A stretch of 64,000 bases of DNA, taken from a virus. Its lineage: Duplodnaviria; Caudoviricetes. Position 1 is the first letter of the stretch. Every line of letters begins with the position of its first letter. The stretch covers positions 1 through 64,000 of the IMG/VR virus record IMGVR_UViG_3300033074_001483; one strand, given 5' to 3'. The notes under the pieces are model-generated. The model did no database searches and was not told the origin of the DNA. It saw only the letters and a list, made by a program, of their open reading frames with translations. Both the position numbers and the translations under genes were made by a program. Positions 51,925 to 62,925 of the stretch are shown here, piece by piece.

Positions 51925-52638
51925 ATGAAACTTCTTATACCAATAAATACACTTGATAAATATAAAAGTCGTGATCAAATACCATTAGAATGTGAAATCT
52001 GTAAGATTACCTTTTATAGAAACAAAAATGATATTCAATGGGCATTGAAATGTAAAACCAAAAATTGTTTGAAGGTCTGTGGGAAAAAATGTCAACAGAT
52101 AATCAATGATAAACGTCTCACTCTTGAATGTTATCAGTGTGGAACTTCTATCAAACGACAAAGACAATCAATCGCCAAATCAAAATTCCAATTCTGTTCA
52201 AGCAAATGTTCCGCAACATATTGGAATTCTCACAAAACTTGGGGAAGTAATCGTTCCAAACTTGAAATGTGGATTGAACAACAACTCACTACTACATACC
52301 CCAACCTTCCCATTGAATATAACAAAACCGATGCCATCAATGCTGAGTTAGATATTTACATTCCATCTTTAAAACTTGCGTTCGAGCTCAATGGCATATT
52401 CCATTATGAACCCATCTTCGGGATAGACAAACTAAAATCATTCCAAACAAATGATGCTCGAAAATTCCAATCTTGTATGGAAAATGGAATAGGACTTTGT
52501 GTTATTGATACATCTTCAATAAAGTACTTCAAAGAAGAACGAGGAAAGAAATTCCTTTCGATAATCACCCAAATCATAGACAAGAAAGTGGCGGAAGGCA
52601 CAGAGCACGATTCTGATGCACATTTAAGGCACGTATAG
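51925..52638 (+). CDS. Putative homing endonuclease (Zn-finger repeats + Vsr-like nuclease), antisense within the tRNA array
   Basis: CEIC, CGKKC, CYQC, CSSKC; ELDIYIPSLKLAFELNGIFHY. CATATTTAT motif at 51912-51920. 3' end overlaps tRNA-Ser(GGA) on the opposite strand. Confidence 0.75.
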   Translation: MKLLIPINTLDKYKSRDQIPLECEICKITFYRNKNDIQWALKCKTKNCLKVCGKKCQQIINDKRLTLECYQCGTSIKRQRQSIAKSKFQFCSSKCSATYWNSHKTWGSNRSKLEMWIEQQLTTTYPNLPIEYNKTDAINAELDIYIPSLKLAFELNGIFHYEPIFGIDKLKSFQTNDARKFQSCMENGIGLCVIDTSSIKYFKEERGKKFLSIITQIIDKKVAEGTEHDSDAHLRHV

Positions 52639-52677
52639 ATTTCCAATCTATCCCCACACCTAGCAGGTTTACCTTCC
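52589..52677 (-). tRNA. tRNA-Ser(GGA), non-canonical 8/4 fold
   Basis: 8-bp acceptor GGAAGGTA/TGCCTTCC, 5-bp D-stem, anticodon arm ATAGA-TTGGAAA-TCTAT, long V-arm, 4-bp T-stem CAGA/TCTG with loop ATCGTGC, G73, CCA. Confidence 0.85.
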
Positions 52678-52679
52678 AG

Positions 52680-52855
52680 TTCTTGGCATAGTCTTATGGA
52701 AGTTTAATACCTAGACCATTTCGCCGTCATCGCTATCCCTCTTTAGGCTGGGAGACCTGTCATGGTCTTCGGGTGAACTTAACACCTTACTTATTGTCCA
52801 TGATTTCCCCGTGTGTCCACACTACGGGAGTTCATTTTTCGGTATTCCTGCTATG
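52680..52855 (-). ncRNA. Unassigned structured RNA (about 175 nt)
   Basis: Follows a promoter and boxA-like motif; no convincing ORF. Terminal CATAG/CTATG pairing, hairpin CCCGT-A-GTG-TGGA-CAC-ACGGG, TCCC/GGGA and GACCAT/ATGGTC complementarities. Confidence 0.5.
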
Positions 52856-52929
52856 TCAAAGAACTATAAATCTTCGAGCATAAATATAGCAGAAGTTTTC
52901 CAAGGATGCAAGAAAAAAGTTTAAGAAAA

Positions 52930-53253
52930 TTACTGTTTGAGTTCCCAGTGTAAAATATCGTGGCAATTACCACATAGAACTTTACACTTGGCAATTTCCA
53001 AAAGAATTCTCTCCTTACACCAGTTGTGTCGCCTGACAGCTGTGCTGACATCCAAATCTTTTTTGGAAGGATCGAGATGATGAAATTTGATTACTGCGGG
53101 ATGCTTGAAACCACATCCCTCACACTTCAATGTAGATTTGTAATCATCAAACCATTCAATGATTTCACGTTTGCGAGCATCAACACGTTTTCTATGGTGA
53201 ACTTTATTCTGTTCATACCACGACTTGTTTTGTTGTTTAGTGGCCATAGACAT
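52930..53253 (-). CDS. HNH endonuclease
   Basis: CEGCG...FHHLDP...CKVLCGNCHDILH. Confidence 0.9.
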   Translation of the reverse strand: MSMATKQQNKSWYEQNKVHHRKRVDARKREIIEWFDDYKSTLKCEGCGFKHPAVIKFHHLDPSKKDLDVSTAVRRHNWCKERILLEIAKCKVLCGNCHDILHWELKQ

Positions 53254-53288
53254 AAATATGTCTGAACCACAGAAAGAAGTTCAGAAAA

Positions 53289-53362
53289 TGGCTGGGACGG
53301 AAGGAGTTGAACCCTCACTGAACGGGTCAGAACCGTGTGTGCTACCATTACACCACGTCCCA
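53289..53362 (-). tRNA. tRNA-Gln(CTG)
   Basis: TGGGACG/CGTCCCA acceptor, loop TTCTGAC, TTCAACT T-loop, CCA. Confidence 0.9.
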
Positions 53363-53419
53363 GTAAAGCGGGGAAACCATATTTCAGATCGCCCCATCGC
53401 CTTGCGGCGAGAAGTAAAT

Positions 53420-53493
53420 TGGTGGAGCCACGGGGAATCGCACCCCGATCTCAAGTATGCCATACTCGTGTCCTACTGTTGAACGATGGCCCC
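53420..53493 (-). tRNA. tRNA-Ala(GGC), variant elbow
   Basis: G3:U70 identity pair, loop ATGGCAT, D-loop AACAGT and T-loop TGCGATT, CCA. Confidence 0.88.
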
Positions 53494-53747
53494 GACACCA
53501 AGGGGAAGTGCCCCTCGGGTGGATTCGCTACACCATAAGGTGCAGGAGTTCCGACGTTTTTTACAAGATTGTCTCAAACTTGTTCTCGGCAGAGGTCGCT
53601 AACTACAAAACTATGACCGCCTTGCCTTCTTGGAATTCTCCTAGAGCAGTGGACGGAATGACATTTTGTAATTCCCTCAGTCACCGAAAAGTAGCACGGC
53701 GTCTGGTGCGATTGTTGATGAAACATTTCGTACGCCGTTTGTTAAAT
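53494..53747 (-). ncRNA. Unassigned structured RNA between two tRNA-Ala genes
   Basis: String of stems: ACGGCGT/ACGCCGT, GGAATT/AATTCC, GGCA..GGTC/GACC..TGCC, ACAAG/CTTGT, TGCACC-TTAT-GGTGTA, CACC.GAGGGG-CACTT-CCCC.GGTG. No convincing ORF. Confidence 0.5.
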
Positions 53748-53822
53748 TGGTGGAGCTACGGGGAGTCGAACCCCGATCTGCGGCTTGCAAAGCCACCGTA
53801 TTACCGTTATACAGATAGCCCC
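53748..53822 (-). tRNA. tRNA-Ala(TGC)
   Basis: G3:U70, loop TTTGCAA, TTCGACT, CCA. Confidence 0.92.
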
Positions 53823-54149
53823 ATACTAGATGCCAGTTTTATACTCACTACGAGTCCCTTTCGGAGTTATGGTGAGCCCGGAGGCTCAATTATTGGTTGC
53901 AGTGTGCATCTATTTCTAAACACTTAATGTCCGTTTGGGTGTCACCCCACGCTCTTAGCCCGACAATTAGGCGGCTCGGTAGTCCGAAAGTTATGTTGAC
54001 AACATAACACACTCTTTAGCACAAGTGAATTGGAAATTGTTCTTGGGTTACAGGACTTATTGGCCAATGCCTACTCGCTCTCCATCATTCTAACCGGAGA
54101 TCATCCCGGCAGAGTATCAGCATCACGAGCTTGCTGAGAACAATTAAAT
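53823..54149 (-). ncRNA. Unassigned structured RNA (about 325 nt)
   Basis: AATTGTTCT/AGAACAATT closing stem, TCAGCA/TGCTGA, perfect GTTATGTT-GTC-AACATAAC, GAGCC-TCCG-GGCTC, TCC-GAAA-GGGA, TAGATGC/GCATCTA long-range pair. Confidence 0.6.
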
Positions 54150-54239
54150 TGGTAGCGGAAGTAGGAGTTACACCTACCATAGTTAGCAGTGCTAACGCAC
54201 GTTATGAGCGTGCTTGGCGTCTTCCGGCCTGTCCCCGCA
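54150..54239 (-). tRNA. Atypical CAU-anticodon tRNA with a long variable arm
   Basis: TGCGGGG/TTCCGCT acceptor (U1:U72 mismatch), GCACG-CTCATAA-CGTGC, inserted GTTAGC-ACT-GCTAAC hairpin, GTAGG-TGTAACT-CCTAC T-arm, A73, CCA. Confidence 0.75.
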
Positions 54240-54686
54240 ATAAATCTCAAAGAACTTTTGTCTGTACGACTGGCATTGAATACCTGTCCGTATCCGATGG
54301 CATTTTGCACATCTCACCGAACACTTTTCAATCTCCAATCTAATCTTATCCCACGAAAATCCTCTCACAAGCATTGCATACACGGCGTCTTCTTTTTGTG
54401 AAGGGTCTTCGTGATCAAAGTCTAATACTCGTATGTCTGTTTCCCCACAATCTACGCACGGATGTATCATCAAATACTCACACACTTTTTGCTGTGAGTC
54501 TGCCAGTCTGCGTTTCGTTCCTTTGTTTGAACGAGTGATATACTCCCGTCTATTCTGTTTGTAATGCTGTTTTACGTACTTCCCATGACACTCTTTACAT
54601 TCAGAACAACGAAGATTTTTCGCTTTATTTCGGAATGAGAAACACTCATCCTCTTTTGGCTTTTTACAAGTACAACATTCTCTCAT
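54192..54686 (-). CDS. HNH endonuclease with an N-terminal zinc finger
   Basis: CCTC...CSECKEC; CVDCG...LDFDHED...CSVRCAKCHRIR. Stop codon lies 48 nt inside the atypical CAU tRNA. Confidence 0.85.
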   Translation of the reverse strand: MRECCTCKKPKEDECFSFRNKAKNLRCSECKECHGKYVKQHYKQNRREYITRSNKGTKRRLADSQQKVCEYLMIHPCVDCGETDIRVLDFDHEDPSQKEDAVYAMLVRGFSWDKIRLEIEKCSVRCAKCHRIRTGIQCQSYRQKFFEIYCGDRPEDAKHAHNVR

Positions 54687-54739
54687 ACTCATAAATATCA
54701 TCGTGGAGTCAAAAACATCAAAGTATTTTGACTACAAAG

Positions 54740-54811
54740 TGGTTGCGGTCGCTGGAATCGAACCAGTCCCTCACCTTATGAGAGTGAGATGCACCATTAC
54801 AACTCCCCGCA
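54740..54811 (-). tRNA. tRNA-Met/Ile2(CAT), imperfect acceptor stem
   Basis: TCACT-CTCATAA-GGTGA anticodon arm, TTCGATT T-loop, A73, CCA; two mismatches at the base of the acceptor stem. Confidence 0.75.
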
Positions 54812-54813
54812 AT

Positions 54814-54870
54814 TCAAAGAACAATCTTACGTTCTGCCTATAAATATAGCAGGACTTTTGAAAATGTCAA
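54814..54870 (-). promoter_or_regulatory. Composite promoter (TTGACA...TATATTTATA) plus boxA-like GTTCTTTGA
   Basis: TTGACA-16-TATATT overlapping the TATTTATA motif, then TGTTCTTTGAA immediately before the tRNA. Confidence 0.65.
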
Positions 54871-54881
54871 GCCTCCACGAA

Positions 54882-55064
54882 TTATTTTATTCGGTCCTGA
54901 ATATCCTTGGAAGTCAAAGATTTCAATGCTTCCCGGTCCTCTTTTTTGAGGCGATTTACCAAATACCCCGGCTTTTTCGGACCAGTACCCAATGCGGCAT
55001 GAAGAAGCAAACTATCAAAAACTTCTTGTGCTCGGCGTCGTTGTCGTCTAGTCAGTGATGACAT
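54882..55064 (-). CDS. Small basic hypothetical protein
   Basis: MSSLTRRQRRR..., start overlapping the coaD stop. Confidence 0.5.
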   Translation of the reverse strand: MSSLTRRQRRRAQEVFDSLLLHAALGTGPKKPGYLVNRLKKEDREALKSLTSKDIQDRIK

Positions 55065-55503
55065 ATTTTCGGTATTCCTCGGGAGAAATTTTTTCAATTG
55101 CTCTCAATGCGCTGGAACTGATATGTCTCAAATTTGGATTGCAATAAAATGCAACAATCTTGACATAGGGTTCCATACTTCTCAGAAATGCAACGAAATT
55201 TTGTTCGTATTCCAAATCTGCACCGCTGCGGAGTCCACGAACAAGTGTTACATCGTAATCCAAATTCCTTTCAAGACCCCGAATGTAATCGGAAAGTAAT
55301 CCCCCGAATTCATCACTATCCACATCCATATCTTTCAAGAAATTAACAGGAAGAGGGTGAGTAGAAAGTGGTTTTTCTGGATTAACACCACGAGCAACAA
55401 TCACTTTGTCAAAAACTTTAGTTGCCTGTTTGACAACATCTAAATGCCCAACGTGAAAGGGGTTGAACGAACCGGCGTAAACTCCAACTTTTAGTTTGCT
55501 CAT
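55048..55503 (-). CDS. coaD: Phosphopantetheine adenylyltransferase
   Basis: YAGSFNPFHVGH, LVRGLRSGADLEYE and HISSS motifs. Confidence 0.85.
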   Translation of the reverse strand: MSKLKVGVYAGSFNPFHVGHLDVVKQATKVFDKVIVARGVNPEKPLSTHPLPVNFLKDMDVDSDEFGGLLSDYIRGLERNLDYDVTLVRGLRSGADLEYEQNFVAFLRSMEPYVKIVAFYCNPNLRHISSSALRAIEKISPEEYRKYVITD

Positions 55504-56099
55504 ACTTTTACGATTAGTGCTTTATAACTCGGCAAACCCTTGACTCCCATCAATGGTACAATCTTCTCGGGTTTATCTTTGAAAAATTCATCTGTGGCAA
55601 CTTTTGGTCCGGGCCACAAATCCGTTCCGTAATCATCTATCAATACCACTGCACCTTTTTCCAGATGATTGTATATCAATCTTAATGCCGACTCAGTACT
55701 TGTTTTCAAATCACCATCAAGATGTGCGAATGAAATCTTTAACGGAATGTCGGATTCGGTCAACTGTTCAAACCATCCTTTATGGATAATTGGGATAGGA
55801 ACATTATACGATCTGAATGTCAATAGAAAAGACTCTACCGAACTTGACATTTCTCCACCATGACCTTCAGCCCTTGGCAATCCCATAAAGCTATCATAAA
55901 CATGAACGGGACGATTTGTGAGAGCATTTATCATTCTGGCAGTGTAACCCTCATGACATCCAAACTCAACTACATCACCTTCCAAATGCTCGGTTTCCAT
56001 GACATAATGGCAAATGTGTACTATCCGTGAAAAGTCCTGCATTCCAATACAGGACTTCAACATTGTGGCAAGTTTTTGTGATAATGTTTCATCAAACAT
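55500..56099 (-). CDS. TylF/MycF-family SAM-dependent O-methyltransferase
   Basis: LEGDVVEFGC, VYDSFMGLP, KGWFE, FAHLDGDL and GAVVLIDDY motifs. Confidence 0.85.
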   Translation of the reverse strand: MFDETLSQKLATMLKSCIGMQDFSRIVHICHYVMETEHLEGDVVEFGCHEGYTARMINALTNRPVHVYDSFMGLPRAEGHGGEMSSSVESFLLTFRSYNVPIPIIHKGWFEQLTESDIPLKISFAHLDGDLKTSTESALRLIYNHLEKGAVVLIDDYGTDLWPGPKVATDEFFKDKPEKIVPLMGVKGLPSYKALIVKV

Positions 56100-56100
56100 A

Positions 56101-56487
56101 TTACCACCATAGATGTCGGAACCACTCGGCAAATAATTCTATTCCCGCTTCATAGCGTTTCCAGTTTTTGTCTTGTTCTTCGGCAGTAAGTTTTGAATAC
56201 TTTTCGTTTTCATGATTAAGAGACCAATCAAATGCAAAAATCATTTCGTCCAAGTAATCATCCCATTGTTTAGAAGTCAACTGGCCGGGGAATCCCATAT
56301 TGACTTCTTTGAAGCGAATAAGTCGTGGAAGAATAAACTCCGCAATCACCGAATCCAGACCCCAAGTTTCAGCATCCGAAAACCCTTGGGTTTTCAATTG
56401 TCTAAAATGCTTTTTGTATCGTTTGTCGGTTTTCTCAAGGTATAATGGTTCTTTGAGAGACCAACGACTTGTTAGTTTTTTGCTCAT
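56101..56487 (-). CDS. Hypothetical protein
   Basis: 128-aa ORF in the operon, ending in LFAEWFRHLWW. Confidence 0.65.
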   Translation of the reverse strand: MSKKLTSRWSLKEPLYLEKTDKRYKKHFRQLKTQGFSDAETWGLDSVIAEFILPRLIRFKEVNMGFPGQLTSKQWDDYLDEMIFAFDWSLNHENEKYSKLTAEEQDKNWKRYEAGIELFAEWFRHLWW

Positions 56488-56939
56488 AGTGATGCATATA
56501 GACGACGAAATGCTGCTTCTTCATCCCACGTTCCTCCTGTCAGAACCTCGATACATCTTCCATGTGGGAGTTCAAAATCTGGAACATGATACTTTTCTCT
56601 TCCTCGGATTTCTCCTGTGAAAACATGAATTTCAACAACATCATTTCGTGAACCTTTGAATTCTTCTCGAACATCACGATACGGATTAACTGTTGACACA
56701 ATGACATCAATTCCTTGATCTGCTATATGTGCTACAAACCGTTGGAGAGCACGAGTCTGTTCAATACGATATTCTTTGGTGAAATTTTCAGGTTTGTCGT
56801 AAGGAACAGCAAAGATTTTTCGGAGGTTATCACCATCAAGATGGAGAACTGCTGAACCTTTGGCACGCAATTCAGAAGCGAGTCGTTTTGCCAATGTAGT
56901 CTTGCCACAACCGGGTTGTCCTATAAACCAGTAAATCAT
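56484..56939 (-). CDS. cysC: Adenylylsulfate kinase-like P-loop kinase
   Basis: WFIGQPGCGKTTLA, LDGDNLR, VIVSTVNPYRDVRE; shorter than typical CysC. TTGACT-16-TATAAT promoter upstream (about 56946-56973). Confidence 0.7.
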   Translation of the reverse strand: MIYWFIGQPGCGKTTLAKRLASELRAKGSAVLHLDGDNLRKIFAVPYDKPENFTKEYRIEQTRALQRFVAHIADQGIDVIVSTVNPYRDVREEFKGSRNDVVEIHVFTGEIRGREKYHVPDFELPHGRCIEVLTGGTWDEEAAFRRLYASL

Positions 56940-56981
56940 GCCGTTATTATAGCATGGATACTATTGAAGTCAAGTGGAAAG

Positions 56982-57055
56982 TGGTGGAGCTAAAGGGAAT
57001 TGAACCCTTATCTTCGCAGTGCGAGTGCGATGTCCTGCCGTTGAACGACAGCCCC
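56982..57055 (-). tRNA. tRNA-Ala(CGC)
   Basis: G3:U70, TCGCA-CTCGCAC-TGCGA, TTCAATT, CCA. Confidence 0.92.
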
Positions 57056-57437
57056 ATTCGGGCAACTTGTCAGTCACCCACGATGTTACTCGTTATCCAA
57101 ACCTATTTCTACGAGCTGCACGTAGATGCCAGTCTTGACCCTACCTCGGAACCTCGGTCAATCCTATAGCACGTTACTACAACAAAAGCCGCCGTTCCGC
57201 AGCGACGTGTCAGTTTAGAAATTCGGTGCTCATGGTCTGCTTATAGTACTCTGGAGGTCTCGCAGAAGCCCTGACCCAGACACGAGCAAAATATCGTTTG
57301 CAGATCGTATCGTCGAACGATACGCTGTGCAAACGGAAAAATGGTGAGATGGGCAGTGCAAACTGCTTTCTACAGGGGGGACGGCACCACGTCTGTCCCT
57401 TATGGAGTACTCCTTTCGGGACGCCCATCTCATTCTG
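57056..57437 (-). ncRNA. Unassigned structured RNA (about 380 nt) between RNase P RNA and tRNA-Ala(CGC)
   Basis: GAGATGGGC/GCCCATCTC multibranch domain, GTTTGCA..CGTATCG-TTCGA-CGATACG..TGCAAAC hairpin, TGCTC.GTG.TCTG/CAGA.CAT.GAGCA, TTGACC/GGTCAA, CTACG/CGTAG. Confidence 0.6.
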
Positions 57438-57728
57438 TTTTTGTCGCAGCCGTAGCCGCAATTCTGTTCTATCTCTACATTTTTCTCAAGGTCAACCATA
57501 CGGTTGCCAAGTCCCTCACGGGATGCCTCAACCCGGGCTTTACAATGGGAAGCACTACCCTTTGCCCTGTTTGAGTTGCTGTTACTTTGTGGTGTTAACG
57601 AATGGTTTGCCCACGGTCAAGAGGGCGTCGGTAAAGACCCATTCTCCCAAACAGCTGCTTTACAGTTGCGAACTTCCTCTGGTTGCTCCTGTTCAGGCGG
57701 AACCAGCGTAGAGTCGCTTACGACAAAA
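57438..57728 (-). ncRNA. rnpB: RNase P RNA (compact, about 290 nt, reduced specificity domain)
   Basis: Manually mapped on the bacterial consensus: P1 TTTTGTCG/CGACAAAA, P2 CTCTAC/GTAGAG, P3 CTGGTT/AACCAG, P4 AG(T)TCGCAA/TTGCGGCT with bulged U after GAGGA and ACAGAA before the 3' strand, P5 CTGT/ACAG, J5/15 CAA, P15 CTCA/TGAG with L15 GGGT, P16 GGGC/GCCC, P6 AAGCA/TGCTT, P18-like hairpin. Confidence 0.88.
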
Positions 57729-57731
57729 TTC

Positions 57732-57775
57732 TCAAAGAACTGGTGGTACGATACCACACTTCGTCAAAATGTCAA
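57732..57775 (-). promoter_or_regulatory. Sigma70-like promoter plus boxA-like motif for the rnpB operon
   Basis: TTGACA-16-(TGG)TATCGT, then AGTTCTTTGAG 3 nt before P1. Confidence 0.6.
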
Positions 57776-57780
57776 CCTTT

Positions 57781-58137
57781 TTATGGGATGACTGCACCTT
57801 GCCCCGGTGCTGGAGGGGGAGTAACCACTGGTGGAGTTACAACTGGAGGCGTAACCACTGGTGGTTGAGTATTGACTCCTGTTTTATTCTCCAAAAATCG
57901 TCTTGCTGTATAAGTTCCACAGAGGACCAGAGTTACATAAACATATGGTTCTGGTACATCGGCAAGTTTGTCCGTTTTGAAAGTGACGTATCCGATAAGT
58001 GTCATAAAGAACACCATCCATATGAGAAACATCAGTCCTGTGCGGGACATTCTTCCTCGGTGGTCCAAGAGTAGTTCGATTGGTTTTGCCATATGTGATA
58101 AAAGTTGGTGCTGCCTATCAGATTCGAACTGATACAT
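57781..58137 (-). CDS. Two-TM membrane protein (holin-like) with a PPVVT-repeat tail
   Basis: Two hydrophobic helices and C-terminal (PPVVT)x3. Confidence 0.5.
   Translation of the reverse strand: MYQFESDRQHQLLSHMAKPIELLLDHRGRMSRTGLMFLIWMVFFMTLIGYVTFKTDKLADVPEPYVYVTLVLCGTYTARRFLENKTGVNTQPPVVTPPVVTPPVVTPPPAPGQGAVIP
57820..57866 (-). repeat. Three tandem 15-nt repeats encoding PPVVT
   Basis: Plus-strand ggagtaaccactggt/ggagttacaactgga/ggcgtaaccactggt. Confidence 0.8.
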
Positions 58138-58205
58138 TCTACCTTCTCAGGGTAGCGACTCCTTCCAGTTGGTCTAAGGCAGCGTTTGACTATCTATAAA
58201 TAGTT

Positions 58206-58562
58206 TTAGAACCCCTGTTCCGACTCACGAAATTTCTTGATGTCTTCTAGCAATCCTTCTCGGTCATCACGGTATTTCTGAATCATGTAGGCAAATCCCT
58301 CACGGTCTTCTTCCTCCACCATTTCTGTAACGAATCTGGCAATGTCTTCGTCGGAGGGTTGCCAGTCAAACTCTTCACAAACAGCGGCGATTTTGGTTCC
58401 CATCGGGGTCATGTTGAATGCACATTCTACAAGACCAAGCTTTTGAATTTGGTCAAGGTAATGGATAATCATCATTACCGAAATGGTTTGGGTTGGTTCT
58501 TCAAACACACCCTCTAACTTGAGGCGTTCGAGAATTGCCTTTACTGTTTCGTCAATTGTCAT
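58206..58562 (-). CDS. Acidic hypothetical protein
   Basis: 118-aa ORF with its own promoter. Confidence 0.65.
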   Translation of the reverse strand: MTIDETVKAILERLKLEGVFEEPTQTISVMMIIHYLDQIQKLGLVECAFNMTPMGTKIAAVCEEFDWQPSDEDIARFVTEMVEEEDREGFAYMIQKYRDDREGLLEDIKKFRESEQGF

Positions 58563-58574
58563 AGGAAATTTTAC

Positions 58575-58613
58575 CTTTCGGGAAGACTATAACATACATC
58601 TTCCCGAAAGTCA
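58575..58613 (-). promoter_or_regulatory. Sigma70-like promoter embedded in a perfect 12-bp inverted repeat
   Basis: TTGACT-17-TATAGT; CTTTCGGGAAGA (58575-58586) and TCTTCCCGAAAG (58599-58610) flank the -10 box. Confidence 0.6.
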
Positions 58614-58616
58614 AGG

Positions 58617-58988
58617 TTAAAACCAGAGCCAATCGGCGTCCTTCTTGAAGGTGGGCATTACAGCATCGTAGTCGCCTTGGCGGATTTTCGCCAAGACACG
58701 ACGCTCTTGTGCCTTGCGTTGTTTCCACAGAGTTTTACGGAAGTGTTTGGGAGCGTGATTCCAGTGTTTGTGAGTCCCATTTTCGATGGCACGGGCTTGA
58801 CGCTCAATGCTTTCGAAATGACTTTTGATTTGTTCCAAAGTATCCCACAATCGCACCCAGTAGTCACGGGGAGCAACGTCAATGCGATACGGACAGAGAG
58901 TCTCGTAGGGATGATTTTGGTTACGGATACGATTCCAGTGTTTGACACGGAAGCGTCGGTTGCGAATGTACTTGTTTTCAGTTCTCAT
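58617..58988 (-). CDS. Basic hypothetical protein
   Basis: 123-aa ORF, R/K/W-rich. Confidence 0.6.
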   Translation of the reverse strand: MRTENKYIRNRRFRVKHWNRIRNQNHPYETLCPYRIDVAPRDYWVRLWDTLEQIKSHFESIERQARAIENGTHKHWNHAPKHFRKTLWKQRKAQERRVLAKIRQGDYDAVMPTFKKDADWLWF

Positions 58989-59067
58989 TGGTTATGCGAA
59001 CCTACACCTTTATGATGTAAGTCACATACCAAAGAACATGAGTTGAGTTGTCATATACATAAGAAAT

Positions 59068-59145
59068 TGGTCGGAGTGATAGGATTTGAACCTACGACCT
59101 TCTGCTCCCAAAGCAGACGCACTAGCCAAGCTGTGCTACACTCCG
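59068..59145 (-). tRNA. tRNA-Pro(TGG)
   Basis: CGGAGTG/CACTCCG, TCTGC-TTTGGGA-GCAGA, TTCAAAT, CCA. TATTTATA motif 5 nt upstream. Confidence 0.93.
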
Positions 59146-59158
59146 TTGTCTATAAATA

Positions 59159-59506
59159 TCAGTACGGTCTTGGTTTAGTTTTACCATCAACAATTGTTAA
59201 AGTTCCTTTTATTTTTGGCAATTCTTCAACTAATCCACCTACCGAGACGAGCGATTCGTTTTCGATTTTCGCTTTCTCTTGCAAATTCTTCTCGTCACGA
59301 GCAATGGTTTCGTCGGCGAGTTTCTTGTATTCGTCGGGGAGAGACTCTCCAACAGCTTTAAGAACGTCTCTAGCGAACTCTGCGTCCTTCTGGAGCCTTT
59401 CTTTAACAAACTCTTGGGCGAGTTCGACCTTTTTGCGTTGCACTTCTTGTGCGATCCAAACGTTCTTGGCATTCAGTTTTCTCTTTGCTGATCTTAATCC
59501 ACCCAT
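59159..59506 (-). CDS. Coiled-coil hypothetical protein
   Basis: Start placed at MGGLRSAKRK to avoid a 170-nt overlap. Confidence 0.55.
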   Translation of the reverse strand: MGGLRSAKRKLNAKNVWIAQEVQRKKVELAQEFVKERLQKDAEFARDVLKAVGESLPDEYKKLADETIARDEKNLQEKAKIENESLVSVGGLVEELPKIKGTLTIVDGKTKPRPY

Positions 59507-59522
59507 AACTAATTCTTTCTCA

Positions 59523-59855
59523 TTACTTGTTTTTATTTTGCCCCTGTCCTTGCCCTTGCCCCTGACTTCCCGAGTTTTGGTTTCCACCACCCTGATTGCC
59601 GCCTTGATTCCCCTGATTTTCTTTGTCTTTCTTTTCCTTAATCTTTTTTCCATAGAAAAGACGACGAATCTTTTTCCATTCTTTTTCGTCATCGGTCAAC
59701 GGCTTCCCGTGCTTGACATCTGCTTCGATAAAAGAAGCAAGACTAGAAGATTCTGTAGTCATTACTTCTTCAGGGTCCAATGGACCAATGAAAGTAATAT
59801 CGAGAAATGCGTACTGCCTTGTCTCAATGAATTCTTGTGCTTGATCTTCTGTCAT
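59523..59855 (-). CDS. Hypothetical protein with a G/Q/N-rich tail
   Basis: Start placed at MTEDQAQ, just after the tRNA-Val CCA; tail NQGGNQGGG...QGQGQGQ. Confidence 0.55.
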   Translation of the reverse strand: MTEDQAQEFIETRQYAFLDITFIGPLDPEEVMTTESSSLASFIEADVKHGKPLTDDEKEWKKIRRLFYGKKIKEKKDKENQGNQGGNQGGGNQNSGSQGQGQGQGQNKNK

Positions 59856-59859
59856 AAAT

Positions 59860-59933
59860 TGGTGGGCCATGATGGTTACGCTCCATCGTCTCATCAGTGT
59901 CAGTGATGAATTCTACTATTAAACTAACAGCCC
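59860..59933 (-). tRNA. tRNA-Val(GAC), variant elbow
   Basis: GGGCTGT/ATGGCCC, CATCA-CTGACAC-TGATG, D-loop AATAGT, T-arm GATGG-AGCGTAA-CCATC, A73, CCA. Confidence 0.85.
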
Positions 59934-60005
59934 GTATTCCGTGATTAAAGCGGGTTCACGGAAAAAGAAACCATATCGCACGCCATAAGGCTGCGAGGAG
60001 CGACA

Positions 60006-60377
60006 TTAAGGAATGTCTCCGACCTTTAGCCACGTTGGGATAAACCCAATGTCATCAAGGACTCTTTTCTTGGTCTGGTTTATCACCGACTTGTAAACCC
60101 AATCGGGATACCCTTGACAATACTCACGAATCTCTTGAGGAAAGAACAAAGGACACTGCAATTGCCGATCCCACATTCCTTCTGACCAAAGTTTGATTTG
60201 AAGATTGACCGACTCTTTCCCTTCTTGGGCACGCTTCACTAAGTCCCATTCCCGTGTCGGCACCATCAATCCATTTTCCAAACAGAGAAAGCTATACATT
60301 CCACTTTCACCATTTGGTTCATTCGGAGGTAAAAATCCCGGATGACATTCAAAGAGCTTTGGGAAATTGATGTACAA
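60006..60377 (-). CDS. Hypothetical protein, start uncertain
   Basis: The frame stays open about 50 codons upstream of the TTG start (see findings). Confidence 0.55.
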   Translation of the reverse strand: MYINFPKLFECHPGFLPPNEPNGESGMYSFLCLENGLMVPTREWDLVKRAQEGKESVNLQIKLWSEGMWDRQLQCPLFFPQEIREYCQGYPDWVYKSVINQTKKRVLDDIGFIPTWLKVGDIP

Positions 60378-60489
60378 CTCCCAATTTTCAACAAATTCTT
60401 TTCTCTTAACCGCCCGATACTTCGGGAGATTAACAGGCTTTAGATTCCCTTGTCCTTCATTGCGTTTGGCATTGTCATAGCATCCTCCG

Positions 60490-60675
60490 TCATTTGTTTT
60501 GTTGATGTCGCAGTATGCGAAACACCGTACTAAGAATAATTACTATCGGCCACACCAAAACATTCAGTAACCAGAACGATATTCTCTCTTGCCAATTACC
60601 AAGGGGTGCCATTTCCATGTACAGCAAAAAACCCCATACTAACCCGACCAGTAAATAAAGGACGATGTATAGCAT
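60490..60675 (-). CDS. Small two-TM membrane protein
   Basis: Hydrophobic 61-aa ORF behind a TTGACA-17-TAGAGT promoter. Confidence 0.6.
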   Translation of the reverse strand: MLYIVLYLLVGLVWGFLLYMEMAPLGNWQERISFWLLNVLVWPIVIILSTVFRILRHQQNK

Positions 60676-60689
60676 GGGAGAACTCTACA

Positions 60690-60854
60690 CTATTTTGAAG
60701 TATCTGTCAAGTGCCATTTCTTGCACGCCTTACATCGGTAAGGGCGAAGACAAGCCCCGAAACCGCCAAGCGACTCTTGAAGGATGCGATGAATCTCCCG
60801 CATTACTTCTTCTTTGGAAGCGTACTCACGCTTTCCTTGGCAGTGGAACTTCAT
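60690..60854 (-). CDS. Small zinc-finger-like protein (54 aa; not in the ORF track)
   Basis: Manual translation MKFHCQGKREYASKEEVMREIHRILQESLGGFGACLRPYRCKACKKWHLTDTSK, with a Y.C..C..WHLT motif. Confidence 0.65.
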   Translation of the reverse strand: MKFHCQGKREYASKEEVMREIHRILQESLGGFGACLRPYRCKACKKWHLTDTSK

Positions 60855-60859
60855 GAATG

Positions 60860-60933
60860 TGGTAGGCGATATTGGAGTTGAACCAATGCCTGTTCTGTGT
60901 GAGAGAACTATTCTACCGTTATAATAATCGCCT
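60860..60933 (-). tRNA. tRNA-Val(CAC)
   Basis: AGGCGAT/ATCGCCT, GTTCT-CTCACAC-AGAAC, TTCAACT, CCA. Confidence 0.9.
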
Positions 60934-60937
60934 ATTG

Positions 60938-61234
60938 TTAGATTTTGACAAACTTACCGATGTTTCTTTCAATTGACTTCTTGGATTTGGGATCAAATCC
61001 CATTTCCCAACAATTGTCTTCGGCATCGGAATGACACCATAGAGATGGACTTCCCATTTCACCACCCGTATCAAAAATGACAACTTTCACTTTACTGCCA
61101 TCCTTGAGTTCCATCTCGTCTTTACATTCTCCCCAACAAATCATAAAGACATCAGCAAGTTTATGAATCTTGCGCTTCTTTACGAACTTCAATCCGAGGG
61201 ACTTCCAGTTTGTAACTAATTCTTGGTTTGTCAT
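60938..61234 (-). CDS. Hypothetical protein
   Basis: Start placed at MTNQELV, after the tRNA-Ser CCA. Confidence 0.6.
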   Translation of the reverse strand: MTNQELVTNWKSLGLKFVKKRKIHKLADVFMICWGECKDEMELKDGSKVKVVIFDTGGEMGSPSLWCHSDAEDNCWEMGFDPKSKKSIERNIGKFVKI

Positions 61235-61238
61235 AAAT

Positions 61239-61329
61239 TGGCGGTAGGCTGAGGTCACGCTCCCCACACCCGTCTAAGGGGTGCAATCACGTTAGCACCG
61301 TGTTCTGGGCCTCGCCCAGTTAACCTACC
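61239..61329 (-). tRNA. tRNA-Ser(GCT), non-canonical 8/4 fold
   Basis: GGTAGGTT/AGCCTACC 8-bp acceptor, D-arm CTGGG-CGAGG-CCCAG, loop GTGCTAA, long V-arm, T-arm GGGG-AGCGTGA-CCTC, G73, CCA. Confidence 0.83.
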
Positions 61330-61694
61330 AAAAACTGCGGTATTGTCGAAACACTTATTTGATTTCTTCCATCGAGAATGTTTGATGGAATGAGATACTT
61401 TTTCTCATCCCCATCTACAATGAATACCAAATCACAATCTTCTTTGGATAAATGTTTGATGTCCAACTTTTTTCCTCGTGTGTTACTTACGGTTCTCAAC
61501 TCAACATTATAAGTGTTGTGTTTGTTTTTCTTAAAGCACGTTTTTACTTGAACTCTAAGACACTTACCGTCCTTTTCCACAATCAAATCATAAGGTTGAC
61601 TATCAGATAGTGGAACTGCAACTGTATATTCCATTTTGAGGAAATACGCAATCGCATATCCAGTTCCAACATCACCTTGTTTTCGACTATTCAC
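61320..61694 (-). CDS. PD-(D/E)XK endonuclease (group I intron-associated type)
   Basis: KQGDVG...YDLIVEKDGKCLRVQVKT. Stop codon lies within the 5' end of tRNA-Ser(GCT). Confidence 0.85.
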   Translation of the reverse strand: MNSRKQGDVGTGYAIAYFLKMEYTVAVPLSDSQPYDLIVEKDGKCLRVQVKTCFKKNKHNTYNVELRTVSNTRGKKLDIKHLSKEDCDLVFIVDGDEKKYLIPSNILDGRNQISVSTIPQFLVG

Positions 61695-61820
61695 TTAAAT
61701 CGGTCCAGTATTTTCATATTGAAAACCTGTGTAAAAAGTCACGGATCAAGTTCGCCACAATTTCCTGCCTGTGGACTTAACCACTCAGCTCATGGTCGGT
61801 GTTGACCGAGTACCTCAGAT

Positions 61821-62078
61821 TCAACGAATGTATTTTGCTTTCTTTATTCGCTCAACACATTCAAATCCATATTCGTCTTGCCACTTTGCCGAAGCCGCCC
61901 ACATCGTTCTTACTTCTTCCAAAGTTGGTGGAGGCATTGCTCTCAACTTCGCCATTCGATCTTTCAACCATTGTGGTGCCCCAATAACCCATTCACCAAG
62001 TACCTTTGTCCATCGGTCTCGATGCTCACACTGGCAAAACCCCGGAATCAACCCGTGACATGTACCACATGTTTTCAT
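61821..62078 (-). CDS. Hypothetical protein with an N-terminal Cys cluster
   Basis: MKTCGTCHGLIPGFCQCEH. Confidence 0.55.
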   Translation of the reverse strand: MKTCGTCHGLIPGFCQCEHRDRWTKVLGEWVIGAPQWLKDRMAKLRAMPPPTLEEVRTMWAASAKWQDEYGFECVERIKKAKYIR

Positions 62079-62241
62079 GACATGCAACAAATAATTGCTG
62101 CCATCATCATTGCATCGTCAGAATCACGTCGGCGACGATCATCATCATCTTCATCTCGTTTGCGCTTACGCTCACATTCATCACATTCATTGCGATAGTT
62201 GAGATTTTTCACTTCTCGGTTGCATTTGTAGCACTTTTCAT
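62075..62241 (-). pseudogene. Small Cys/acidic ORF apparently frameshifted right after its ATG
   Basis: ATG at 62241 reads MKSATNATEK*, whereas the -1 frame reads KCYKCNRE...DDAMMMAAIICCMS. One A is missing from the ATGAAAA run. Confidence 0.4.
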
Positions 62242-62246
62242 AAATC

Positions 62247-62325
62247 TGGTGCGCTTGACAGGACTCGAACCTGTGATGATAAGTTGCGTGTAAAGCAACC
62301 GCCGTCGCCGCTGGGCCACAAGCGC
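62247..62325 (-). tRNA. tRNA-Val(TAC)
   Basis: GCGCTTG/CAAGCGC, GTTGC-TTTACAC-GCAAC, TTCGAGT, CCA; slightly enlarged variable loop. Confidence 0.9.
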
Positions 62326-62414
62326 ATTGTCGGGTATAAATATGCCACAAACTTCCAAAAAAGTCAAGCTGTTTCAGGGTTTAGACCACTACTTATAGTA
62401 GAGATGGTCTAAAT

Positions 62415-62834
62415 ATGAAACAGCAAAGCAATTGTTTATCTTGTAATTCCCTTATTGAGTATGATGACGGAAATGAGTACGGTCATTTTTGCAACAACCG
62501 CTGTCAACAAGAGTATCGGTATTTACACAATACGAAACCACGAATAGAAATGGGTAAGGTGTCCGAACGACATACCCTTAAAAGGTATCTAATTCGAGAG
62601 CGTGGAGAAAAATGTGTTATCTGTAACAATCTTCCTGTGTGGAATGGAATGCCCCTCTCATTGATTGTAGATCATATAGACGGAAATTCCGACAACCATT
62701 CCCCAATCAATCTTCGTTTAGTATGTCCTAACTGTAATTCTCAACTTCCAACTACAAAAAATAGGACAATGAAATCTGCGAAGCGAAACGTGTACCTGCG
62801 TAAGTATAAACAAACACACGAGGTTAGAAACTAA
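62415..62834 (+). CDS. HNH endonuclease, antisense between two tRNA genes
   Basis: CVICN...LIVDHIDGNSDNHSPINLRLVCPNCNSQ. Confidence 0.9.
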   Translation: MKQQSNCLSCNSLIEYDDGNEYGHFCNNRCQQEYRYLHNTKPRIEMGKVSERHTLKRYLIRERGEKCVICNNLPVWNGMPLSLIVDHIDGNSDNHSPINLRLVCPNCNSQLPTTKNRTMKSAKRNVYLRKYKQTHEVRN

Positions 62835-62837
62835 AAT

Positions 62838-62925
62838 TGGCGGTAGGCTGAGGTCACGCTCCCCACACCCTTTCAGGTGCGATCCGATTTCAAGTCGGTC
62901 CTGAGTCTCACTCAGTTAACCTACC
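62838..62925 (-). tRNA. tRNA-Ser(TGA), non-canonical 8/4 fold
   Basis: Same acceptor and T-arm as tRNA-Ser(GCT); D-arm CTGAG-TGAGA-CTCAG (compensatory changes); ACCGA-CTTGAAA-TCGGA; G73, CCA. Confidence 0.87.

Follow-up and report, generated by a model that had tools for sequence, protein, structure and literature searches.

Five of the 15 tRNA genes in the stretch of phage DNA analysed here replace the almost universal tRNA corner contact G18-U55 with a matched A18-G55, and they look like working tRNAs built on an alternative corner that we also found in other phages, in core tRNAs of ocean SAR11 bacteria and in a ribosome-rescue RNA. The stretch (the window) is the first 64 kb of an 85.5-kb phage contig with a GC content of 42%, whose minus-strand array holds about 61 tRNA genes for all 20 amino acids. 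Twenty of these have G55, of which 16 lack GG in the D-loop and carry AG while the other four also fit A18; in contrast, 40 of 41 U55 tRNAs keep GG (16/4 versus 1/40, Fisher 3.7e-10). We found no paper describing this elbow in tRNAs.

A coupled A18/G55 elbow in the phage tRNA array

A first-pass annotation had reported that every tRNA with G in place of U55 also has A in place of G18, that Ser(GGA) keeps both canonical elements, that four tRNAs swap U54-A58 for A54-U58 and that a long-arm CAU tRNA combines G55/U56 with an AA in its D-loop. All of these sequence statements hold on the minus strand, and the phenomenon is larger than that annotation had seen. The tRNA-Ala(GGC) gene (53420-53493) has the D-loop AACAGTA and the T-loop TGCGATT, which is of the UGNRA type with U54-A58 kept, and it carries both G3-U70 and an encoded CCA. 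The tRNA-Val(GAC) gene (59860-59933) combines A18/G55 with the swapped pair A54-U58 (D-loop AATAGTA, T-loop AGCGTAA). Two class II tRNAs share the T-loop AGCGTGA (A54, G55, U58): tRNA-Ser(TGA) (62838-62925), with the D-loop TGAGA (A18 G19), and tRNA-Ser(GCT) (61239-61329), with the D-loop CGAGG, for which A18 G19 is assigned by homology to the Ser(TGA) copy. The two Ser genes share their 3' 33 nt, and the D stem of Ser(GCT) differs from that of Ser(TGA) by compensatory pairs. The fifth gene (54150-54239) encodes a long-variable-arm tRNA with anticodon CAU, a U1-U72 mismatch, the T-loop TGTAACT (G55, U56) and the D-loop CGGAAGAC (A18, A19), so that 18/55 and 19-56 are changed together; the same A19-U56 combination occurs in another contig (L092; L-numbers label the other contigs compared here).

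Three canonical or partly canonical genes provide comparison. The tRNA-Ser(GGA) gene (52589-52677) keeps G18 G19 and U55 but has A54-U58 (T-loop ATCGTGC), showing that the 54/58 swap is independent of the 18/55 state; ATCGT-type T-loops with GG in the D-loop also occur in other viral contigs and in the tRNA-Phe of Acinetobacter phage P577. The canonical tRNA-Ala(CGC) (56982-57055; AACGGCA and TTCAATT) has a D arm equal to that of Ala(GGC) except at positions 18 and 20, and tRNA-Val(CAC) (60860-60933) is likewise canonical (AACGGTA and TTCAACT). All of these genes lie on the minus strand.

Alignment with Infernal to the Rfam tRNA model RF00005 placed the A of Ala(GGC) (50.2 bits) and of Val(GAC) (49 bits) under consensus G18 and the G under U55. 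ARAGORN and Rfam at default settings found only two of the five G55 genes in the window, the long-arm CAU gene being detected by neither, and five of the G55 genes of the contig were missed by Rfam even at E<=1, although many score above the Rfam cut-off. A structure-only scan with no loop-sequence or CCA requirement gave 38 array hits at a score of >=20 and none on the plus strand or on reversed sequence. All 46 array hits at a score of >=19 end in CCA, including the long-arm CAU gene (score 19). Within the window, 5 of 5 G55 tRNAs fit A18 and 10 of 10 U55 tRNAs have GG (exact p = 1/3003). These statistics are inflated by paralogy and shared ancestry, since tRNA paralogues are not independent samples, and for four G55 genes of the contig (Ser GCT, the long-arm CAU, Cys and Asp at 75548) a GG also occurs in the D-loop, such that A18 rests on register or homology.

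Covariation and conservation of the elbow

The first-pass annotation had named covariation at 18/55 and 54/58 among homologous phage tRNAs as a test of its reading. Among 79 distinct tRNAs with unambiguous 7-nt D-loops from other viral contigs, we counted 29 A18/G55, 45 G18/U55 and 2 mixed combinations (Fisher 1e-18), and only D-loop index 4 showed this coupling. The pair 19-56 covaries as Watson–Crick (U19-A56, A19-U56 and C19-G56), and 54/58 is coupled as well (U-A 156, G-G 26, A-U 19). Covariation at the three positions recurs across about 18 amino-acid families and 19 viral contigs, and the design is frequent in large phage tRNA arrays, reaching 14 of 15 tRNAs in one contig (L055).

The G55 genes show no sign of decay. 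Mean stem score is 20.39 for G55 and 20.38 for U55 tRNAs, all anticodon loops have U33 and normal length, and identity elements are intact: in addition to G3-U70 in Ala(GGC), G-1 and C73 are present in both His genes, the G55 form (contig 76197-76270) and its U55 paralogue (76063-76136), which also share an identical T stem. Moreover, the G55 genes supply anticodons that the canonical set lacks, since all three Thr tRNAs, Cys, Ala GGC, Val GAC, Ser GCT, Ser TGA, Glu CTC and Arg GCG exist only in this form on the contig, although the contig is a fragment and canonical Thr or Cys tRNAs could lie elsewhere in the genome. Orthologues in L272–L275 keep both loops through compensatory stem changes. 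Those of Ala(GGC) in L273, L274 and L275 retain A18/G55 with compensatory changes in the anticodon, acceptor and T stems, while the orthologue of Ser(TGA) in L272 (a 354-kb contig, locus GC 31%) has the same two loops with fully compensatory D-stem and variable-arm changes.

The same design in other RNAs

Compared with the canonical elongator tRNA, including those of the large arrays of T4-like and jumbo phages, the genes described here share the cloverleaf fold, acceptor and T stems of 7/5 bp (8/4 is possible in the Ser genes), G53-C61, G19-C56, U33, identity elements and CCA. They differ in that G18 becomes A and U55 becomes G, with 54-58 often A-U or G-G instead of U-A, so that the sites for Gm18 and Psi55 are absent, as is the m5U54 site wherever position 54 is not U. 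In sequence, their T-loops match instead the general T-loop motif UGNRA/YGNRA of FMN and cobalamin riboswitches, RNase P and rRNA (Chan, Chetnani and Mondragon 2013, as cited in bioRxiv 10.1101/2022.12.26.521914), with G at motif position 2, a purine at position 4, a non-canonical 1-5 pair, two flipped-out bases after the motif and an adenine supplied by the partner loop. Non-tRNA T-loops have the consensus UGNRA/CGNRA, with an almost invariant intercalating adenosine bonded to the sugar edge of G2, and a GGAAG T-loop exists in rRNA (bioRxiv 10.1101/2022.12.26.521914); CGCGA and GGCAG are seen in these tRNAs. Here, however, the motif sits in a tRNA and its partner is the D-loop, with a Watson–Crick 19-56 pair next to it. 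The AGCGU and GGCAG classes depart from the UGNRA consensus at positions 1 and 5, the A1-U5 combination of AGCGU being no part of the published consensus, and for these classes the analogy rests on a single rRNA example and on tmRNA.

Alphaproteobacterial two-piece tmRNA uses the same design in its tRNA-like domain. The Rfam alpha_tmRNA consensus (RF01849) has the T-loop GGCgGUA, with G at the U55 equivalent, and 76 marine alpha-type tmRNA genes with GGCAGTA have AG where Escherichia coli ssrA has GG; Caulobacter tmRNA likewise has G at the U55 equivalent, the U342-to-G change being mentioned in PMC1168896. The T arm GTCGG-GGCAGTA-CCGAC is letter-for-letter the one in five tRNAs of this contig, four with GGCAGTA plus the Glu(CTC) variant GGCAGCA. 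tmRNA, however, has no D stem or anticodon arm and works with SmpB, whereas the genes here are complete tRNAs.

The elbow also occurs in housekeeping tRNAs of Pelagibacterales (SAR11), of which tRNA-Phe(GAA), tRNA-Val(GAC) and tRNA-His were compared. The loop pair AATAGTA/AGCGTAA of the phage Val(GAC) is found in the chromosomal tRNA-Val(GAC) of more than 100 Pelagibacterales species genomes, and in a complete SAR11 genome the single tRNA-Phe is AGGAGTA/TGCGAAT, while tRNA-Phe genes recovered from 17 other published alphaproteobacterial genomes are canonical, for example AGGGGTA/TTCGATT. These are chromosomal, single-copy genes among otherwise canonical tRNAs. SAR11 is unlikely to be the host of this phage, since the phage His tRNAs have G-1 and C73 whereas the SAR11 His tRNA has A73.

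Staphylococcal non-proteinogenic tRNA-Gly are natural tRNAs that also lack G18 and U55 (PMC4574755). Those, however, lose G19 and C56 as well (U18U19 or C18U19) and are diverted from the ribosome, whereas here the outer pair is kept and the inner pair is replaced in a coupled way across about 14 amino-acid families on this contig. Phage tRNAs that escape tRNA-cleaving defence, such as T5 tRNAs versus PARIS and Retron-Eco7, similarly differ from host tRNAs at the site a nuclease reads, but the known cases change the anticodon loop of one or two tRNAs, whereas here the elbow of a third of the set is changed and no cognate nuclease is known for this phage.

Competing accounts and the predicted alternative contact

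The first-pass annotation inferred selection for a folded but non-standard elbow rather than decay, possibly to evade host tRNA-targeting defence nucleases or modification enzymes, and this interpretation is only partly supported: our data support the former, while evasion as the purpose is not shown. Evasion is plausible. The CRISPR-associated Schlafen nuclease CbCash targets the UUC motif and cuts the T-loop 5' of U55, single U54 or U55 substitutions abolish cutting, and its authors leave open whether phage tRNAs are targeted (PMC13462974); a G55 tRNA also cannot receive Psi55. A second set of tRNAs lacking the U54-U55-C56 element would survive host or rival-phage nucleases that cut or read the canonical T-loop and would not depend on host TruB, TrmA or TrmH. 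Phage tRNAs are known to rescue infection from the tRNA nucleases PARIS and Retron-Eco7, and several anticodons exist here in both forms (His GTG, Asp GTC, Gly TCC, Phe GAA, Lys CTT and Ile GAT), as would be expected of a back-up set. However, two thirds of the tRNAs of this phage remain canonical, and with no G55 copy for Leu, Pro, Asn, Gln, Tyr and Trp the protected set would be incomplete. The same elbow is used by housekeeping SAR11 tRNAs and by tmRNA, where phage defence is not an obvious driver, and is therefore not phage-specific, and no nuclease, anti-defence gene or tRNA-modification gene was recognised among the ten array ORFs tested. Counter-defence, which concerns why the design is used and so is compatible with our account of what the genes are, remains a tentative hypothesis that is not needed to explain the design.

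Another possibility, somewhat better supported though still short of likely, is that A18/G55 is a near-neutral alternative, structurally equivalent to G18/U55 and reached now and then by a double change, which persists because it folds at least as well, perhaps without needing modifications, and is more common in phage arrays only because those genes turn over fast and are exchanged by homing endonucleases. Consistent with this, it occurs sporadically in unrelated settings (2 of the roughly 30 tRNAs recovered from a SAR11 genome, tmRNA and many phages), the state is stable per gene among relatives, HNH and PD-(D/E)XK endonuclease genes are interspersed in the array, and riboswitch T-loops of this type fold without any modification. 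This view is weakened, however, by the near absence of single-mutant intermediates (2 of 76 A/G-by-G/U combinations), indicating that crossing between the two states is not easy, and by fractions as high as that in L055, which suggest a directional pressure, not drift. That these are decaying pseudo-tRNAs with uncoupled mutations in redundant copies is very unlikely: ARAGORN and Rfam give them lower scores or miss them, and a homologue of the long-arm UAU tRNA is annotated as tRNA-pseudo in phage P577, but the coupled changes, stem quality, CCA and identity elements, compensatory substitutions in orthologues and anticodons found in no other form on the contig already contradict this reading. 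We consider it almost as unlikely that they are tRNA-shaped RNAs with a job outside translation, such as decoys for nucleases, primers or regulators, comparable to the staphylococcal tRNA-Gly species that feed cell-wall synthesis and likewise lack G18 and U55, since here G19-C56 is kept, 14 amino-acid families are represented on the contig and about 18 across the other viral contigs, Thr and Cys decoding by the phage set depends on these genes, and SAR11 uses the design for its single tRNA-Phe.

The explanation we favour, with fairly high confidence, is that these are working phage tRNA genes whose elbow is locked by a different inner contact. Our analysis demonstrates the covariation, the conservation, the intact identity elements and the use of the same design in essential cellular RNAs, whereas the actual A18-G55 geometry, charging and decoding in the unknown host, and any selective advantage are inferred from sequence alone, no RNA run being on record. 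In the usual tRNA, G18 slides between bases 57 and 58 of a UUCRA T-loop and bonds to U55 (pseudouridine). Here the T-loop has the sequence of the general T-loop motif, N-G-N-R-N, appearing in this contig as UGCGA, AGCGU, GGCAG and GGCGU, and the D-loop offers an adenine at 18; in riboswitches, RNase P and rRNA an adenine intercalates between motif positions 4 and 5 and hydrogen-bonds to the sugar edge of the G at position 2. The outer pair 19-56, the flat face on which the ribosome, RNase P and T-boxes stack, is kept as G-C or covaries as a Watson–Crick pair, and the L-shape and its outside surface should therefore be preserved. What disappears are G18, U54 (in the AGCGU, GGCAG and GGCGU classes) and U55, which are the substrates for Gm18, m5U54 and Psi55 and form the UUC element read by at least one T-loop nuclease.

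The tRNA array and the rewired elbow

The contig is a single 85,516-bp viral sequence with 42% GC, of which the window is the first 64 kb. Upstream lie tail, baseplate and SbcCD-like genes, PHROGs recognizing only baseplate and SbcCD-like proteins there, and from 51.7 kb to 78.9 kb the minus strand carries a tRNA array interspersed with small ORFs. ARAGORN at default settings found 10 tRNAs in the window and 40 in the contig, while Rfam found 9 in the window. We developed a scan that asks only for acceptor, D, anticodon and T stems plus U33, with no requirement on loop sequences or on CCA. At a score of >=20 this gave 38 hits in the array, 1 elsewhere on the minus strand, and none on the plus strand or on reversed sequence; at >=19 it gave 46 array hits, every one of which ends in CCA. 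Adding genes seen only by ARAGORN or by the first-pass annotation, the contig has about 61 tRNA genes covering all 20 amino acids. The genes have the cloverleaf of elongator tRNAs (RF00005), with acceptor, D, anticodon and T arms and a 7-nt anticodon loop with U33, and Infernal scores for Ala(GGC) and Val(GAC) were 49-50 bits.

The first-pass annotation had claimed that every tRNA here with G in place of U55 also has A in place of G18, and each of its sequence statements proved correct. The D-loop and T-loop are AACAGTA and TGCGATT in Ala(GGC), AATAGTA and AGCGTAA in Val(GAC), CGAGG and AGCGTGA in Ser(GCT), and TGAGA and AGCGTGA in Ser(TGA). Ser(GGA) has GG in the D-loop and the T-loop ATCGTGC, keeping U55 but with A54/U58, and the long-arm CAU tRNA pairs CGGAAGAC with TGTAACT (G55, U56). 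Infernal's alignment to the Rfam tRNA model places the A of AACAGTA and AATAGTA under consensus G18 and the G of the T-loop under U55. The pattern continues beyond the window, with 15 more G55 tRNAs at contig 71.6-78.9 kb (locus L117, a further stretch of the same contig). Their T-loops are AGCGT in Phe, Asp, His and Thr GGT; TGCGA in Arg GCG and Asp; GGCAG in Glu CTC, Ile GAT, Lys CTT, Cys, Thr CGT, Thr TGT, a long-arm UAU tRNA and a CAU tRNA; and GGCGT in Gly TCC. Overall, 16 of 20 G55 genes have no GG in the D-loop and carry AG, the other four having a GG that is also compatible with A18, whereas 40 of 41 U55 genes have GG (Fisher 3.7e-10). All five G55 genes of the window, and all 20 of the contig, depart from the conserved elbow nucleotides of the family (G18, G19, U54, U55, C56 and A58) in having G55 with A at position 18; G19 and C56 are kept, or are changed together in the CAU long-arm tRNA, and pair 54/58 is U-A, A-U, G-G or G-U.

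To determine whether the coupling is general, we searched IMG/VR for exact matches to the T arm shared by several of these genes (GTCGG-GGCAGTA-CCGAC), which returned more than 116 loci. The same structure-only scan on those loci gave 252 hits, against 4 on reversed sequence, of which 214 were distinct. Every one of the 137 tRNAs with U55-C56 has GG in the D-loop, whereas of the 63 with G55-C56, 55 have AG and no GG. For the 79 tRNAs with a 4-bp D stem and a 7-nt D-loop, positions 18 and 19 can only be loop bases 4 and 5, and in that subset we counted A18/G55 29, G18/U55 45, A18/U55 1 and G18/G55 1 (Fisher 1e-18). No other D-loop position tracks position 55. These loci were fished with a G55 T arm, so that although the coupling is informative the G55 fraction is not a prevalence in phages or a basis for comparing phages with cells, and relatedness among the tRNAs inflates the p-values. 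Pair 19-56 covaries as Watson-Crick (AGAATTA with AAAATTA, TTTAA with AATGATA, TGGAA with a C19 D-loop, and GGTAG and TGTAA with A19). Pair 54/58 is coupled as well (U-A 156, G-G 26, A-U 19), and since the A54-U58 swap occurs with either 18/55 state the two changes are independent.

We next asked whether the G55 genes are decaying. They have neither the broken stems, the lost 3′ end nor the uncoupled loop mutations of pseudo-tRNAs: mean stem scores are the same for G55 and U55 genes (20.39 and 20.38), CCA is encoded in all of them and Ala(GGC) keeps the synthetase identity element G3-U70, which does not depend on the anticodon. The two His genes of the contig (76063-76136 and 76197-76270), one U55 and one G55, both have the His identity elements, an encoded G-1 opposite C73, and share the same T stem. 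On this contig, which is a fragment, Thr (three anticodons) and Cys exist only as G55 genes, as do Ala GGC, Val GAC, Ser GCT, Ser TGA, Glu CTC and Arg GCG. Three related contigs carry Ala(GGC) next to a canonical Ala(CGC) and Gln(CTG), as here, and keep A18, G55 and G3-U70 while the anticodon stem (G30-C40 to C-G), the acceptor stem (C6-G67 to U-A) and the T stem change compensatorily. A 354-kb contig (locus GC 31%) has the Ser(TGA) gene with identical TGAGA and AGCGTGA loops, its D stem and variable arm being fully compensated. The tRNA cluster of Acinetobacter phage P577 is almost entirely canonical, but its tRNA-Phe (AGATGGAT / ATCGTTA) and the Phe gene of this contig (AGATAGAT / AGCGTTA) differ in the two loops only at positions 18 and 55.

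Other features of the array and its relatives

Among cultured phages, megablast of 52.5-63 kb found only two canonical tRNA matches, and a more sensitive blastn search of the G55-rich part hit mainly canonical Lys and Trp tRNAs. The nearest cultured relative by protein is Microcystis phage Mel-JY01, at 37% identity to the SbcC-like protein, but it has a single tRNA, so it gave no comparison and no reliable host. No RNA dataset is listed for 52589-62588. Ten array ORFs examined for tRNA-processing or modification genes gave HNH, NUMOD4 and PD-(D/E)XK endonucleases, a cytidylyltransferase-like protein, a TylF-type methyltransferase and an APS-kinase-like P-loop protein, none of which is tRNA-specific. 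The cytidylyltransferase-like protein (PF01467), the TylF-type methyltransferase and the APS-kinase/zeta-toxin-like P-loop kinase form a run of small enzyme genes within the array (window 55048-56939, minus strand). Between tRNA-Ala(CGC) and the next gene lies a long stretch without a convincing ORF (window 57056-57780), where an RNase P RNA had been proposed at 57438-57728; Rfam gave no RNase P match in 44-64 kb, nor any other credible match to this stretch, even at E<=10.

Other tRNA genes of the contig are also unusual. Three similar Leu tRNAs with anticodons TAG, TAA and CAA (L117:2464-2548, L117:10083-10167 and L117:13691-13775; contig 66464, 74083 and 77691, minus strand) have canonical T-loops but a very long D region, about 16-17 nt between short stems and containing GGGAAGCTGG, and only a 9-nt variable region where a class II long arm would be expected. 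A 91-nt tRNA-like gene (L117:8628-8718; contig 72628-72718, minus strand) has a good acceptor stem, a canonical T arm and CCA, together with a 6-bp D-like hairpin without GG and no clear anticodon arm. In 35 of 60 tRNA genes across 51.7-78.9 kb the encoded CCA is followed directly by ATTT, and in 8 more by CTTT, which may be a shared processing or transcription signal. Among the loci recovered with the shared T arm, a 39-kb viral contig (L047) has a skipping-rope RNA (RF02924, 56.8 bits; 5301-5402) about 200 nt upstream of a GGCAGTA T arm that ends in CGCCTCA-ACCA (5595-5625).

A proposed T-loop/adenine lock and its cellular counterparts

Outside tRNA, the T-loop motif has the consensus UGNRA or CGNRA and its partner donates an almost invariant adenosine, which intercalates between motif positions 4 and 5 and makes two hydrogen bonds to the sugar edge of the G at position 2; tRNAs are singled out as the exception, with U at position 2, and a GGAAG T-loop is known from rRNA (bioRxiv 10.1101/2022.12.26.521914). 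The G55 tRNAs have a five-nucleotide motif with G at position 2 and a purine at position 4, followed by two more loop bases. TGCGA, AGCGT, GGCAG and GGCGT occur in this contig, and TGCAA, CGCGA and GGCGG in other viral contigs, while the D-loop offers an adenine where G18 normally sits. The TGCGA genes (Ala GGC, Arg GCG, Asp) fit the published consensus, whereas the AGCGT (A-U) and GGCAG (G-G) classes fall outside it, apart from the rRNA GGAAG example. We therefore read the A18/G55 elbow as the general T-loop/adenine lock used inside a tRNA, in which the outer 19-56 pair is kept, so that the surface seen by the ribosome, RNase P and T-boxes would be unchanged. The coupling, the intact stems and the retained identity elements are established by the sequences, but the docking geometry, including insertion of the adenine, is inferred from the sequence signature alone, as is actual charging of these tRNAs.

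About 70 of the IMG/VR hits are not tRNAs but alphaproteobacterial two-piece tmRNA genes (Rfam RF01849, 89-132 bits). They sit on marine contigs filed as viral (L003, L008, L023, L026, L030 and about 70 more of loci L001-L116), and could be phage-borne tmRNAs, integration sites or misfiled SAR11 DNA. All have the T arm GTCGG-GGCAGTA-CCGAC, and the Rfam consensus T-loop for that family is GGCgGUA. In 76 such genes the D-loop analogue reads (U/C)AG where E. coli ssrA, which has a canonical TTCAA T-loop, reads UGG. The G at the U55 equivalent of Caulobacter tmRNA is mentioned in passing in PMC1168896. The phage genes themselves are not tmRNAs (RF01849 / RF00023), since the window genes have full anticodon arms and Rfam gave only a sub-threshold partial match of tmRNA_permuted to the Ala(GGC) T arm (27.7 bits against a 47-bit cut-off).

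The same design was found in housekeeping tRNAs. A scan of 185,579 species genomes for AATAGTA, a 29-30-nt gap and then GGAGCGTAACC gave at least 120 hits, nearly all of those recovered being Pelagibacterales, where they are the chromosomal tRNA-Val(GAC) and, in some species, tRNA-His. In a complete 1.3-Mb SAR11 genome the recovered tRNAs are canonical except three: Val(GAC) with AATAGTA / AGCGTAA, Phe(GAA) with AGGAGTA / TGCGAAT, and Thr(GGT), whose T-loop GTCAGTA has G54/G58 but which keeps G18/U55. That genome has one tRNA-Phe match, whereas tRNA-Phe genes recovered from 17 other published alphaproteobacterial genomes (leaving out the unpublished genome G041, locus L279) are canonical, with AGTYGGTA or AGGGGTA and TTCRA on an otherwise nearly identical body. 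So the paired switch has happened in an essential single-copy tRNA and is compatible with an ordinary bacterial translation system. SAR11 is nevertheless probably not the host of this phage, since the phage His tRNAs use G-1 and C73 whereas the SAR11 His tRNA has A73.

Possible reasons for the alternative elbow

The first-pass annotation had inferred selection for a folded but non-standard elbow rather than decay, possibly to evade host tRNA-targeting nucleases or modification enzymes, and this interpretation is supported in part: our data argue against decay, but evasion remains a hypothesis. It has one concrete published anchor. CbCash, a type III CRISPR-associated Schlafen nuclease, cuts tRNAs mainly in the T-loop 5′ of U55 and targets UUC, single U54 or U55 substitutions abolishing cutting, although its authors state that it is unknown whether phage tRNAs are targeted (PMC13462974). 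G55 tRNAs would also escape Psi55 and Gm18, and those without U54 would escape m5U54. An exclusive counter-defence role is argued against, however, by the two thirds of the set that are canonical, by the absence of a G55 copy for six amino acids (Leu, Pro, Asn, Gln, Tyr, Trp), by the lack of any recognized tRNA-directed gene among the array ORFs tested, and by the existence of the design in housekeeping cellular RNAs. A near-neutral or modification-independent alternative is at least as likely. The near absence of mixed intermediates shows only that the two states are separated by a fitness valley. A more far-reaching possibility, which we consider unlikely on present evidence, is that the rewired elbow is a nuclease-proof and modification-independent tRNA chassis on which phages would assemble whole or partial tRNA sets, so that translation continues when T-loop-directed immune nucleases (Schlafen/Cash-like), or the phage itself, destroy canonical tRNAs. 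Natural matched pairs such as the two His genes would then be the two arms of that strategy.

The G55 genes also differ from the staphylococcal cell-wall tRNA-Gly, non-proteinogenic tRNAs restricted to one amino acid that lose G19 and C56 too (PMC4574755), in that G19-C56 is retained and 14 amino-acid families are covered in the contig. Full-text searches, which do not cover subscription-only papers, found no description of A18-G55, or of the G18A plus U55G pair, in tRNA, and the L-array paper (PMC8421152) does not mention G18 or U55. The present analysis adds the link to the published UGNRA T-loop consensus, the tmRNA parallel including the D-loop analogue, the SAR11 housekeeping cases with the orthologue comparison, and the matched His pair. 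By every structural test these are tRNAs, departing from the family in its defining elbow nucleotides; they are of real interest to tRNA biology but are not a new kind of molecule.

G18-Psi55 and T54-A58, positions on which TruB, TrmA and TrmH act, are taught as invariant features of cytoplasmic tRNA. A strictly covarying natural alternative, present in a third of this phage's tRNAs, in many other phages, in single-copy tRNAs of one of the most abundant bacteria on Earth and in tmRNA, shows that the tRNA corner has at least two designs that, as judged from sequence, work. It links the tRNA T-loop to the general T-loop motif of other RNAs and explains why gene finders under-call phage tRNAs. 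It also provides natural matched pairs for asking what Psi55 and m5U54 are for, gives a concrete candidate for resistance to T-loop-cutting immune nucleases, and could supply scaffolds for orthogonal tRNAs.
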